Assembly (NCBI RefSeq): GCF_013315695.1 | Contig: NZ_CP054353.1 | Strand: one strand, 5' to 3' | Length of the DNA: 64,000 bases | Source of the DNA: Escherichia coli | GTDB lineage: Bacteria > Pseudomonadota > Gammaproteobacteria > Enterobacterales > Enterobacteriaceae | Shown: piece after piece, positions 5,376 to 46,420 of the stretch | How the letters are laid out: the number at the start of each line of letters is the position of its first letter | Position numbering within the stretch: position 1 is the stretch's first letter | Notes under the pieces: generated by a model | Database searches by the model: none | Seen by the model: the letters and a program-made list of their open reading frames with translations, nothing else | Told to the model about the DNA's origin: nothing | Made by a program: the position numbers and the translations under genes

Positions 5376-6110
5376 GTGAAAGTCATCATTGTTGAAGACG
5401 AATTCCTGGCACAACAGGAACTGAGCTGGCTAATTAAAGAGCACAGCCAGATGGAGATTGTCGGCACCTTTGACGACGGTCTGGACGTGTTGAAGTTTTT
5501 GCAGCATAACCGCGTCGACGCCATTTTTCTGGATATCAATATTCCGTCGCTGGATGGTGTGTTGCTGGCGCAAAACATCAGCCAGTTCGCCCATAAACCG
5601 TTTATTGTGTTCATCACCGCGTGGAAAGAACATGCGGTAGAAGCGTTTGAACTGGAAGCGTTTGACTACATTCTCAAACCGTATCAGGAGTCACGCATTA
5701 CCGGGATGCTGCAAAAACTGGAAGCAGCCTGGCAACAACAGCAGACCAGCAGTACGCCTGCCGCGACGGTAACGCGTGAGAATGACACCATTAATCTGGT
5801 GAAAGATGAGCGAATCATCGTCACGCCCATTAACGATATCTATTACGCCGAAGCGCATGAGAAAATGACCTTTGTCTATACGCGGCGTGAATCCTACGTA
5901 ATGCCGATGAACATTACCGAGTTTTGCAGCAAGCTGCCGCCGTCGCATTTTTTCCGCTGCCATCGCTCATTTTGTGTCAATCTGAACAAAATCCGCGAGA
6001 TCGAACCGTGGTTTAATAACACCTATATTCTGCGGCTGAAAGATCTGGATTTTGAAGTGCCGGTCAGCCGCAGCAAAGTTAAAGAATTCCGCCAGTTAAT
6101 GCATCTTTAA
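5376..6110 (+). CDS. ypdB: LytTR-family response regulator, 244 aa (YpdB)
   Basis: Chose GTG at 5376 (VKVIIVEDE) with GGAG upstream; receiver domain plus C-terminal LytTR DNA-binding domain; immediately follows ypdA. Confidence 0.9.
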   Translation: MKVIIVEDEFLAQQELSWLIKEHSQMEIVGTFDDGLDVLKFLQHNRVDAIFLDINIPSLDGVLLAQNISQFAHKPFIVFITAWKEHAVEAFELEAFDYILKPYQESRITGMLQKLEAAWQQQQTSSTPAATVTRENDTINLVKDERIIVTPINDIYYAEAHEKMTFVYTRRESYVMPMNITEFCSKLPPSHFFRCHRSFCVNLNKIREIEPWFNNTYILRLKDLDFEVPVSRSKVKEFRQLMHL

Positions 6111-15993: not shown

Positions 15994-16320
15994 ATGTTCA
16001 GGTCACTGTTTCTGGCGGCCGCCCTGATGGCATTTACCCCGCTTGCGGCAAACGCAGGTGAAATCACCCTACTGCCATCAATCAAATTACAAATTGGCGA
16101 TCGCGATCATTACGGTAATTACTGGGACGGTGGTCACTGGCGCGACCGTGACTACTGGCATCGCAATTATGAATGGCGTAAGAACCGCTGGTGGCGTCAT
16201 GATAATGGCTACCACCGTGGCTGGGATAAGCGTAAAGCCTATGAGCGTGGCTATCGTGAAGGCTGGCGCGATCGTGACGATCATCGCGGAAAAGGCCGCG
16301 GACATGGGCATCGCCATTAA
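15994..16320 (+). CDS. ypeC: secreted low-complexity Arg/Asp/Trp/His-rich protein, 108 aa (YpeC-like)
   Basis: Signal peptide [21 protein letters not shown] then repetitive RD(R/H)xYW-type motifs ending GRGHGHRH. Confidence 0.8.
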
Positions 16321-16344
16321 ACACATTTGCCAATGGAGCACAAT

Positions 16345-16380
16345 GCCTGATGCGACGCTAGTGCGTCTTATCAGGCCTAC
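16345..16380. repeat. REP (repetitive extragenic palindrome) element
   Basis: GCCTGATGCGACGCTAGTGCGTCTTATCAGGCCTAC, classic enterobacterial REP palindrome in the ypeC-mntH gap. Confidence 0.8.
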
Positions 16381-16398
16381 AAACCGGCTCTTTAACGC

Positions 16399-16433
16399 GT
16401 AGGGCGGATAAGGCGTTTTACGCCGCATCCGCC
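16399..16433. repeat. second REP element (inverted relative to the first)
   Basis: GTAGGGCGGATAAGGCGTTTTACGCCGCATCCGCC; with the previous repeat forms a BIME-like pair. Confidence 0.7.
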
Positions 16434-16461: not shown

Positions 16462-17709
<1,248 letters not shown>

Positions 17710-27759: not shown

Positions 27760-27835
27760 GGGTGATTAGCTCAGCTGGGAGAGCACCTCCCTTACAAGGA
27801 GGGGGTCGGCGGTTCGATCCCGTCATCACCCACCA
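27760..27835 (+). tRNA. valU: tRNA-Val (anticodon UAC)
   Basis: 76 nt GGGUGAUUAGCUCAGCUGGGAGAGCACCUCCCUUACAAGGAGGGGGUCGGCGGUUCGAUCCCGUCAUCACCCACCA; anticodon loop CUUACAA; encoded CCA. Confidence 0.92.
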
Positions 27836-27879
27836 ACTACTTTATGTAGTCTCCGCCGTGTAGCAAGAAATTGAGAAGT

Positions 27880-27955
27880 GGGTGATTAGCTCAGCTGGGA
27901 GAGCACCTCCCTTACAAGGAGGGGGTCGGCGGTTCGATCCCGTCATCACCCACCA
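27880..27955 (+). tRNA. valY: tRNA-Val (anticodon UAC), identical second copy
   Basis: Exact duplicate of the previous tRNA after a 44-bp spacer; which K-12 paralog name applies is uncertain. Confidence 0.9.
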
Positions 27956-27959
27956 CTTC

Positions 27960-28035
27960 GGGTCGTTAGCTCAGTTGGTAGAGCAGTTGACTTTTAATCA
28001 ATTGGTCGCAGGTTCGAATCCTGCACGACCCACCA
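27960..28035 (+). tRNA. lysV: tRNA-Lys (anticodon UUU)
   Basis: 76 nt GGGUCGUUAGCUCAGUUGGUAGAGCAGUUGACUUUUAAUCAAUUGGUCGCAGGUUCGAAUCCUGCACGACCCACCA, 4 bp after the preceding tRNA-Val. Confidence 0.92.
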
Positions 28036-28066: not shown

Positions 28067-28145
28067 GCTATCTGCAATTTGCGAAATTGCCTGATGCGCT
28101 TCGCTTATCAGACCAACTATGTCCGGCAGTTCCCGTGCCTCTCAT

Positions 28146-44277: not shown

Positions 44278-45189
44278 TTAAATCCCCGCCCCCTGGCTAA
44301 AATGCTCTTCCCCAAACACCCCGGTAGAAAGGTAGCGATCGCCACGATCGCAGATGATCGCCACCACCACCGCGCCAGGGTTAGCTTTTGCCACCCGCAG
44401 TGCTCCGGCAACCGCGCCGCCGGAGCTGACGCCACAGAATATTCCTTCCCGCGCCGCCAGTTCGCGCATAGTGTTTTCCGCATCGCGCTGATGAATATCC
44501 AGCACCTCATCCACCAGAGAAGCGTTGAAAATCCCCGGCAGATATTCCGCAGGCCAGCGGCGAATGCCTGGAATACTGCTGCCTTCTTCCGGCTGCAGGC
44601 CAACAATCGTCACCGGTTTGGATTGTTCGCGCATAAAGCGTGACACGCCGGTGATAGTGCCGGTTGTTCCCATGCTGGAGACAAAATGGGTAATGCGCCC
44701 GCCGGTTTGCTGCCAGATTTCCGGTCCGGTAGTGGTGTAATGGGCGTAAGGGTTATCGGGATTATTGAACTGATCGAGCAGCTTTCCTTCACCACGATTG
44801 GCCATCTCCAGCGCCAGATCGCGCGCACCTTCCATGCCCTGCTCTTTGGTGACCAGAATCAGTTCCGCACCGTAGGCACGCATTGCCGCACGGCGTTCCT
44901 GGCTCATGTTGTCGGGCATCAGCAATTTCATGCGATAGCCTTTAAGCGCGGCAATCATTGCCAGCGCAATGCCGGTGTTACCACTGGTGGCTTCGATCAG
45001 CACGTCACCCGGTTTAATTTCCCCGCGCTTTTCCGCCTCGACGATCATCGAAAGTGCCGCACGATCTTTTACCGAACCTGCCGGGTTATTGCCTTCCAGT
45101 TTCAACCAGACTTCACTGCCGTTATTCGGCCCCATTCGCTGCAACTTCACCAGAGGCGTATTGCCAATTGTTTGTTCTAATGTACTCAC
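44278..45189 (-). CDS. cysM: cysteine synthase B (O-acetylserine sulfhydrylase B), 303 aa
   Basis: ORF 44278-45267; chose GTG at 45189 giving (M)STLEQTIGNTPLVKL; PLP-lysine motif SVKDRAA. Confidence 0.9.
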   Translation of the reverse strand: MSTLEQTIGNTPLVKLQRMGPNNGSEVWLKLEGNNPAGSVKDRAALSMIVEAEKRGEIKPGDVLIEATSGNTGIALAMIAALKGYRMKLLMPDNMSQERRAAMRAYGAELILVTKEQGMEGARDLALEMANRGEGKLLDQFNNPDNPYAHYTTTGPEIWQQTGGRITHFVSSMGTTGTITGVSRFMREQSKPVTIVGLQPEEGSSIPGIRRWPAEYLPGIFNASLVDEVLDIHQRDAENTMRELAAREGIFCGVSSGGAVAGALRVAKANPGAVVVAIICDRGDRYLSTGVFGEEHFSQGAGI

Positions 45190-45212
45190 GATCTCTGTCC
45201 ATACGTGGTGTT

Positions 45213-45248
45213 GCCTGATGCGACGCTTGCGCGTCTTATCAGGCCTAC
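45213..45248. repeat. REP element between cysA and cysM
   Basis: GCCTGATGCGACGCTTGCGCGTCTTATCAGGCCTAC, near-identical to the REP at 16345-16380. Confidence 0.8.
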
Positions 45249-45322
45249 AGGTTACAAACCTTGCCATTAAAAAGCCCGGATCGCGGGAAGCGCCTCCGGG
45301 CGTTTAACATTCACTCAACCTA

Positions 45323-46420
45323 TCAGGCGCTTTGTGCGAGAGCAAGTTCCTCATCGCGGGTTTCAATACGCTCGTCGCCGTTATACAGCCGCGCATGTTG
45401 CAGACCAACGAATAAACGCTCGCCACGCTGCGGGGCATCGTCGCCATGCATCACAACCGTCAGCGCTTCGTTGTACCACCCCAGCGGCTGCACGACTAAT
45501 TGGGTGTAGTGGCCTTTCGGGCTGGCTTCCAGTACCTGTACCGGCAGCGGCGAATCGAGGCTGGTACGGCGGCTGATATCCACTTCCCACGGACGCAGGA
45601 AGAGATCCACTGGCCCCTGATACGCAGGTGTATAGCCCAGCGGCCAGCGATGTGCGCCAACATGGAACTGCCCGCCGCGAATGGTTCCCTGCAGGCGGTT
45701 CACTTCGCCCATAAATTCGAGTACAAAACGGGTCGCTGGTTCGCGCCATACCTGGTCCGGTGCATCAGCCTGCTCGATATTGCCCTGGCTCATCACCACC
45801 ACACGATCGGCTACTTCGGTCGCTTCTTCCTGATCATGGGTCACAAACACGCTGGTGAATTTCAGCTCTTCATGTAACTGACGCAGCCAGCGACGCAACT
45901 CTTTACGCACCTGCGCATCCAGCGCGCCAAACGGTTCATCAAGCAGCAGAATTTGCGGTTCTACAGCCAGCGCGCGCGCCAGTGCCACACGCTGTTTCTG
46001 GCCGCCGGAAAGCTGTGCTGGATAACGATCCGCCAGATGCGCAAGCTGCACCATCTCCAGCAAGTTTGTCACTTTCGCTTTGATAGCTGCGGCATTCGGG
46101 CGCTCGCGACGCGGCAGCACCGTCAGGCCGAAAGCGATATTGTCGAACACCGTCATATGGCGGAACAGCGCGTAATGCTGAAACACGAAACCGACTTTAC
46201 GATCGCGCGCATGCAGGCGGCTGACGTCGGTGCCGTGGAAGCGAATATGCCCGCTGGTTTGATGCTCCAGCCCGGCGATAATTCGCAGCAGCGTGGTTTT
46301 CCCGGAACCGGACGGCCCCAGCAACGCGACCATCTGACCAGAAGGAATATCCAGTGAGATATCGTTCAGCACCTGGGTGCGACCAAAAGACTTCTTAATA
46401 TTGGCAATCTCAATGCTCAT
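45323..46420 (-). CDS. cysA: sulfate/thiosulfate ABC transporter ATPase, 365 aa
   Basis: Walker [13 protein letters not shown] signature LSGGQKQR, Walker B LLLDEP. Confidence 0.95.

Follow-up and report, generated by a model that had tools for sequence, protein, structure and literature searches.

Ordinary REP elements in the ypeC-mntH gap and the cysA-cysM spacer of Escherichia coli

Three palindromes in the stretch of Escherichia coli DNA analyzed here (64,000 nucleotides, referred to as the window) are ordinary copies of the already known REP family, and they occupy two usual settings, one between convergent genes and the other between tandem genes. The best overall explanation, to which we attach a probability of about 0.9, is that they are ordinary REPs, consisting of a BIME-2-like pair between ypeC and mntH and a solitary z2 element between cysA and cysM, and that such activity as can be inferred for them is most likely exerted at the RNA level. 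REPs have been known since 1984 and are non-autonomous, high-copy palindromes that are thought to be spread and rearranged by a REP-associated tyrosine transposase. Since REPs are already known, the result carries little weight as a discovery, and the value of the check is mainly negative. It corrects the first-pass annotation of the window on two points: the ypeC-mntH pair has no IHF-type linker, and cysPUWAM is treated as one operon. The two loci also allow the states before and after insertion of a REP into, or beside, an intrinsic terminator to be compared cleanly in nature and should be of modest use in studies of 3'-UTR evolution and to users of the IS621 bridge recombinase.

Identification of the REP elements

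REPs are described as imperfect palindromes of 30 to 40 nt with a conserved GTAG foot, are divided into types y, z1, and z2, and number 584 in E. coli K-12 (Ton-Hoang et al. 2012, PMC3333891); annotated REP elements in K-12 number 355 (Harris 2026). The y, z1, and z2 consensus sequences (z2, GCCTGATGCGACGCTGGCGCGTCTTATCAGGCCTAC) were taken from Durrant et al. 2024, and the 64-kb window was scanned with up to 3 mismatches allowed, using 100 dinucleotide-preserving shuffles as the control. The z2 consensus matched only the copy beside ypeC (2 mismatches) and the copy in the cysA-cysM spacer (1 mismatch), both on the plus strand, and the y consensus matched the copy beside mntH alone, on the minus strand (2 mismatches) (Table 1). 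The best type assignments for the three REPs, in order, are z2, y, and z2. Among the 100 shuffled sequences, there were 0 matches for z2 and 0 for y. Taken together, the lack of matches in the shuffles, the exact coordinates, and the identity to the consensus confirm the REP observation far beyond chance. The first-pass annotation had described an inverted REP pair between ypeC and mntH, together with a near-identical single copy between cysA and cysM, and had named a formal consensus scan as the check that could refute this description. The scans recovered both the inverted pair and the single copy, all three sequences matched a REP consensus, and the two z2 copies are identical at 36 of 38 positions (16344-16381 versus 45212-45249).

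Both differences between the z2 copies lie in the loop, which is also the only part in which either copy departs from the z2 consensus. In the y copy, substitutions convert GCCGGAT..ATCCGGC to GGCGGAT..ATCCGCC, a compensated change that keeps the stem pair; on the plus strand, this copy begins with GTAG (16399-16402). All three REPs lie outside annotated coding sequences. Their predicted folding energies range from -20 to -22 kcal/mol (z-scores between -5.2 and -6.6), and each fold contains a 1x1 or 2x2 internal mismatch and leaves the GTAG/CTAC foot unpaired. The hairpin of the z2 copy beside ypeC is predicted at -22.1 kcal/mol on the plus strand and -19.7 kcal/mol on the minus strand, and those of the y copy and the cysA-cysM copy are predicted at -22.1 and -20.5 kcal/mol, respectively, on the minus strand. 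A GTAG foot and a stem mismatch, the sequence prerequisites for recognition and cleavage by TnpA-REP, are present. Of 5426 complete E. coli genomes, 5425 contain matches to a 38-nt z2 query at 40 or more places on the chromosome. When the window was searched against Rfam at gathering thresholds, five tRNAs alone and no REP were reported, and the K-12 RefSeq record carries no REP features.

A degenerate z1-like REP, the fourth family member in the window, lies just past the intrinsic terminator of a tRNA-Val/tRNA-Lys cluster (27760-28035). In the window strain, this cluster contains two tRNA-Val(UAC) genes and a tRNA-Lys(UUU) gene; its K-12 counterpart contains three Val genes (valU, valX, and valY) and lysV, so that the tRNA-Val copy number may differ between the window strain and K-12.

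Table 1. REP elements and neighboring features in the window
Feature	Position	Strand	Description
ypeC (DUF2502)	15994-16320	+	24 nt from the end of the stop codon to the z2 REP
z2-type REP	16345-16380	+	34/36 to z2 consensus; CTAC foot at 16377-16380; reads GCCTGATGCGACGCTAGTGCGTCTTATCAGGCCTAC
Linker AAACCGGCTCTTTAACGC	16381-16398		18 nt, between the CTAC and GTAG feet; kept in K-12, O157, and CFT073
y-type REP	16399-16433	-	33/35 to y consensus plus one extra loop base; minus strand reads GGCGGATGCGGCGTAAAACGCCTTATCCGCCCTAC
Spacer, y REP to mntH stop codon	16434-16461		28 nt; hypervariable among E. coli strains; fold of -10.8 kcal/mol
mntH (Nramp Mn2+/H+ symporter)	16462-17700	-	Convergent with ypeC; stop codon 28 nt before the y REP
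z1-like degenerate REP	28089-28117	+	26/29 to z1 consensus; foot is CAAC, not CTAC
cysM (cysteine synthase B)	44278-45189	-	GTG start at 45189; homologues align from residue 1
Solitary z2-type REP, cysA-cysM spacer	45213-45248	+	35/36 to z2 consensus; CTAC foot at 45245-45248; reads GCCTGATGCGACGCTTGCGCGTCTTATCAGGCCTAC
Intrinsic-terminator-like hairpin and U5	45269-45301	-	Hairpin at 45274-45301, U5 at 45269-45273; starts 21 nt past the cysA stop codon
cysA (sulfate/thiosulfate ABC transporter ATPase)	45323-46420	-	RefSeq annotation and ORF listing

The ypeC-mntH gap

Between the convergent genes ypeC and mntH, a z2 copy on the plus strand, the linker, and a y copy on the minus strand follow one another with their CTAC and GTAG feet facing each other, and the y REP is the first structure that an mntH transcript meets past its stop codon. 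All but two of the 5426 complete E. coli genomes (5424) contain a 1.2-kb region around the pair, with identities of 100% in MS 21-1 and 99.9% in CE10. Between K-12 and the window strain, the pair differs by one loop base and the flanks diverge; a 381-nt ypeC-mntH query was matched at 95% identity or more by 150 of 5425 records. The divergence around the pair is concentrated in the 28-nt spacer on the mntH side of the y REP. This segment carries many differences between strains that are otherwise about 98% identical and differs in almost every strain examined. Its counterpart in K-12 and O157 resembles the left arm of a z2 element (TGCCAGATGCGACGCT in K-12), and in the window strain it is predicted to fold into a separate small hairpin.

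Three strains carry altered forms of the pair. The genome of ECCNB12-2 (locus L004, positions 421-489) lacks the z2 copy and the linker, a 74-nt difference that is bounded by TTAAACAC and TTTAACGC and leaves a solitary y element; this state could have arisen by a microhomology deletion or could be rare and ancestral. In strain 135, 5 nt of the z2 arm are duplicated. In MB06171 (locus L005, positions 262-1503), an IS621-family element sits in the z2 REP, and at its left junction ATCAGGCCT is followed by TGTAT. The element is present in 2245 of the 5426 genomes, where the median copy number is 5. At its right junction, the MB06171 copy does not have the CTAC that would be expected, and this junction could not be reconciled with a canonical IS621 insertion. 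The copy is also about 70 to 110 bp shorter than others; truncation or assembly error may account for the odd junction and length. The absence of the z2 copy and linker from ECCNB12-2 and the presence of an insertion sequence inside the z2 copy of MB06171 indicate that an intact ypeC-mntH pair is dispensable. IS621 naturally targets the 11-bp sequence ATCAGGCCTAC, in which the core is CT, and its insertions, whether natural or experimental, lie mostly in REPs (Durrant 2024); the supplements to that study give no gene names for the insertion sites. Exact copies of this target are present in both z2 elements of the window (16370-16380 and 45238-45248).

In K-12, the same order of elements, z2 and then an inverted y, is present downstream of yaaX, a DUF2502 paralogue of ypeC, in the convergent yaaX-yaaA gap (locus L003, positions 5565-5673). 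Coinheritance of the REP pair with the paralogue was rejected because the flanks do not align outside the REPs, and the shared arrangement is therefore treated as a coincidence.

In Enterobacter hormaechei and Klebsiella michiganensis, the ypeC-mntH gap is 33 to 42 nt long (L093, positions 1349-1381, and L094, positions 1352-1393) and contains no REP. Instead, it holds a short GC hairpin flanked by an A-run and a T-run, together a compact bidirectional intrinsic terminator. The terminator scan of the E. coli gap revealed no other terminator-like structure, and the REP pair thus stands where these outgroups have a terminator. The YpeC locus of Citrobacter braakii, which has another downstream neighbor, and one locus from a noisy assembly were left out of this comparison.

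The cysA-cysM spacer

On the cys mRNA, the cysA-cysM spacer contains a hairpin followed by five U residues, the REP, and then 23 nt that include the cysM ribosome-binding region. The mechanical open reading frame of cysM extends to an upstream ATG at 45267, but the GTG start was used here, and the REP lies 23 nt upstream of it. Because the REP is in its consensus orientation on the plus strand, it is transcribed from the minus strand, as GUAGGCCUGAUAAG.... The hairpin nearer to cysA reads GCCCGGAGGCGCUUCCCGCGAUCCGGGC and then UUUUUAAU on the mRNA strand, has a predicted folding energy of -19.1 kcal/mol, and combines a GC-rich stem with the U-run characteristic of intrinsic terminators. The terminator scan had a loop limit of 8 and for this reason did not flag it. 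The first-pass annotation overlooked this hairpin, as well as the terminator of the outgroups and the strain variation at ypeC-mntH. The REP site was covered over at least 80% of the query, at 95 to 99% identity, in 5420 of 5426 E. coli genomes, and the z2 copy is fixed in the species.

CysM was also scanned in one genome per species, and 58 Enterobacterales loci with cysA directly upstream were analyzed (L010-L089). A stable hairpin directly followed by a T-run was present in 51 of the 58 spacers, which makes the hairpin and U-run, and not the REP, the conserved feature of the spacer. The distance from the end of the T-run to the cysM start is 13 to 14 nt in Citrobacter, Enterobacter, Kluyvera-like, and related genera and 79 to 80 nt in E. 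coli and E. albertii, where the z2 REP and short flanks intervene.

A different REP-like family, GCCGGGTGGCGCT..GCTTACCCGGCCTAC with GTAG/CTAC feet, is present in one or two copies per spacer in several genera, including Enterobacter, Citrobacter, Pluralibacter, and relatives (L011, L019, L021, L023, L024, L026, L027, and L059), and the cysM-proximal copy together with a T-run forms the terminator-like structure there. The cysA hairpin of E. coli (GCCCGGAGGCGCTTCCCGCGATCCGGGC) looks related to this family. Pseudocitrobacter faecalis (L012), whose CysM is 97% identical to that of E. coli, has a terminator-like hairpin of the E. coli type and a y + z2 pair, in which the z2 element is inverted relative to the E. 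coli copy and has the same loop (GCTTGCGCG). This arrangement suggests either a local inversion or rearrangement of the REP or horizontal exchange of the locus. REPs of different families have thus colonized the cysA-cysM interval repeatedly.

The first-pass annotation considered cysA and cysM to be separately regulated genes, a view that the literature consulted does not support: cysPUWAM is described there as one operon transcribed from the cysP promoter, and cysM-cysA-cysW-cysU-cysP is given as a single polycistron by Dar and Sorek. In most non-Escherichia Enterobacteriaceae, the T-run ends so close to the cysM start (13 to 14 nt) that there is no room for a promoter, and expression of cysM would consequently need read-through of the terminator. 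Such read-through suggests an attenuation step that may be built into the cysPUWAM operon. The conserved hairpin and U-run further suggest that cysM would receive fewer transcripts than cysA, by attenuation and not by separate regulation.

Proposed role at the RNA level and alternative explanations

The REPs are most likely either exonuclease-blocking 3'-UTR hairpins coupled to downstream Rho-dependent termination or near-neutral selfish DNA. As blocking hairpins, they would be transcribed by an RNA polymerase that runs through them and is stopped by Rho further downstream; 3'-to-5' exonucleases would trim the tail back to the REP hairpin, which would fix and protect the 3' ends of the mntH and ypeC mRNAs. 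At steady state, many Rho-dependent transcripts have been trimmed by exonucleases back to a protective stem-loop, which in some cases is a REP (Dar and Sorek 2018). A Rho termination region that is sensitive to bicyclomycin has been listed on the K-12 minus strand at position 2511284, antisense to ypeC (Rho score of 3.84, p = 1e-10) (Adams et al. 2021). Transcription in the mntH direction reaches this region shortly after the REP pair, which it has thus already passed in K-12. The Term-seq tables of the same study contain no dominant 3' end inside either gap, and both operons were poorly expressed in the media used. A search of the literature found no experiment on these particular ypeC-mntH and cysA-cysM copies. 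The analysis shows what the elements are, how they fold, how many copies exist, their context, their polymorphism among strains, and the lineage specificity of their insertion; we infer both the effects on mRNA 3' ends and the size of those effects, which could be close to nil.

At cysA-cysM, the REP would form a second hairpin behind the conserved hairpin and U5 and may bring about a modest reduction in read-through to cysM or shield the cysPUWA segment upstream. The best reading is that this REP is secondary to the terminator-like hairpin, and the adjacent hairpin and U5 may do all of the regulation in this spacer, in which case the REP would be a passenger. A REP that is no more than about 15 nt from a stop codon is reported to depress translation, a mechanism that is unlikely here given stop-to-REP distances of 24 nt for ypeC, 28 nt for mntH, and 74 nt for cysA. 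Both contexts are typical: of the REPs in E. coli, about 60% separate convergent genes and about 40% separate tandem genes (Harris 2026).

That the elements are near-neutral selfish DNA, residues of REP proliferation in non-essential spacers that have no measurable effect on neighboring genes, is a serious possibility, albeit one that we favor less than a functional role. Convergent gene pairs with REPs are more highly expressed, and terminal REPs do not lengthen half-lives globally (Harris 2026). The latter result is in keeping with selfish DNA, as are the lineage specificity of both insertions and the polymorphism of the ypeC-mntH pair, which comprises the deletion variant, the 5-nt duplication, the insertion in MB06171, and what looks like a decaying remnant of a third REP. 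Weighing on the other side are the near-unchanged retention of both sites in about 98 to 99.9% of the 5426 genomes, the preservation of the y stem through a compensatory double change, the lack of any other terminator-like structure in the E. coli ypeC-mntH gap, and the Rho termination signal just past the pair.

A more doubtful reading is that REP insertions rewired 3'-end formation at both loci in Escherichia. At ypeC/mntH, a bidirectional terminator would have been replaced by the REP pair, leading to Rho-dependent termination and REP-protected ends, and at cysA-cysM, the REP would have widened the distance between the conserved terminator and the cysM start from 13 to 14 nt to about 80 nt. 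We regard this reading, by which the insertions altered mRNA termination in Escherichia relative to other enterics, as plausible but rather unlikely. If the rewiring is real, the ratio of cysA to cysM expression in Escherichia would differ from that in other enterics.

The first-pass annotation attributed mRNA stabilization and gyrase binding to the REPs. Both agree with the literature on REPs in general, and gyrase binding is a reasonable suggestion for the z2 + y pair, although it is unproven there. It is improbable, in our judgment, that the pair is a transcription-independent site of gyrase binding and cleavage that manages supercoiling between the convergent units. The pair has the composition of BIME-2, in which published cleavage sites are over-represented, with y cleaved more often than z2, and the published cleavage signal rises when transcription is blocked; however, cleavage occurs in only a subset of BIME-2, mainly multicopy arrays such as those in sucC-sucB and tldD-yhdP, whereas ypeC-mntH has a single pair, and a gyrase site would leave the solitary z2 element at cysA-cysM unexplained.

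It is very improbable that the REPs themselves are Rho-independent terminators of mntH, ypeC, or cysA. Their hairpins are strong, a few REPs with a fortuitous U-run do act in this way (Harris 2026), and a REP-like hairpin with a T-run is the cysA terminator in Enterobacter- and Citrobacter-type genomes. However, inspection of the sequence shows no U-run after any of the three copies of E. coli on either strand, a simple promoter and terminator scan flagged nothing at the REPs, and termination in the mntH direction in K-12 is Rho dependent and located downstream of the REPs. As hairpins without a U-tract, the REPs are not intrinsic terminators. Finally, the suggestion in the first-pass annotation of IHF binding, which would make the ypeC-mntH pair an element of the RIP or BIME-1 type, is close to refuted: BIME-1 elements combine z1 and y around a long L linker that often has an IHF site (Ton-Hoang et al. 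2012, PMC3333891), and the control in the same motif search, the long, AT-rich linker of the yaaX-yaaA pair in K-12, yielded an IHF-like site, but the ypeC-mntH pair is composed of z2 and y around an 18-nt linker, and neither that linker nor the cys spacer contained a match to the IHF motif WATCAANNNNTTR with up to one mismatch allowed.

Comparison with known systems

The three elements share with the REPs, or palindromic units, of E. coli (Stern 1984; Bachellier; Ton-Hoang 2012, PMC3333891) a length of 35 to 36 nt, an internal mismatch, a GTAG/CTAC foot, 94 to 97% identity to the type consensus, an extragenic position, and a high copy number. There is no material difference from the family: the y copy has the compensated stem change and an extra loop base, and the z2 copies have loop changes.

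BIME-2 elements combine z2 and y around a short (S) linker and usually occur as tandem multiples with s, l, or r flanking motifs (Ton-Hoang et al. 2012, PMC3333891). The ypeC-mntH pair resembles them in the inverse orientation of z2 and y and in the facing feet; its linker, at 18 nt, is short and may correspond to the S linker. It differs from them in being a single pair and not a tandem multiple and is therefore filed as BIME-2-like, in distinction from a typical BIME-2 array. Next to the mntH stop codon, there may be a decayed third unit.

Two activities have been described for REP325, in yjdM-yjdN: it brings about partial Rho-dependent termination, and it stabilizes upstream mRNA (Harris et al. 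2026 preprint). The cysA-cysM copy resembles it in its tandem position within an operon, and the mntH pair resembles it in the alternation of z2 and y. REP325 has 12 units, in contrast to the 1 or 2 present here, and the cys copy differs from it in sitting behind a separate hairpin and U-run.

As targets of the bridge RNA of IS621, a member of the IS110 family, both z2 copies hold the exact target sequence, and the ypeC-mntH copy carries an IS621-family insertion in MB06171; in the window strain, in contrast, both targets are empty.
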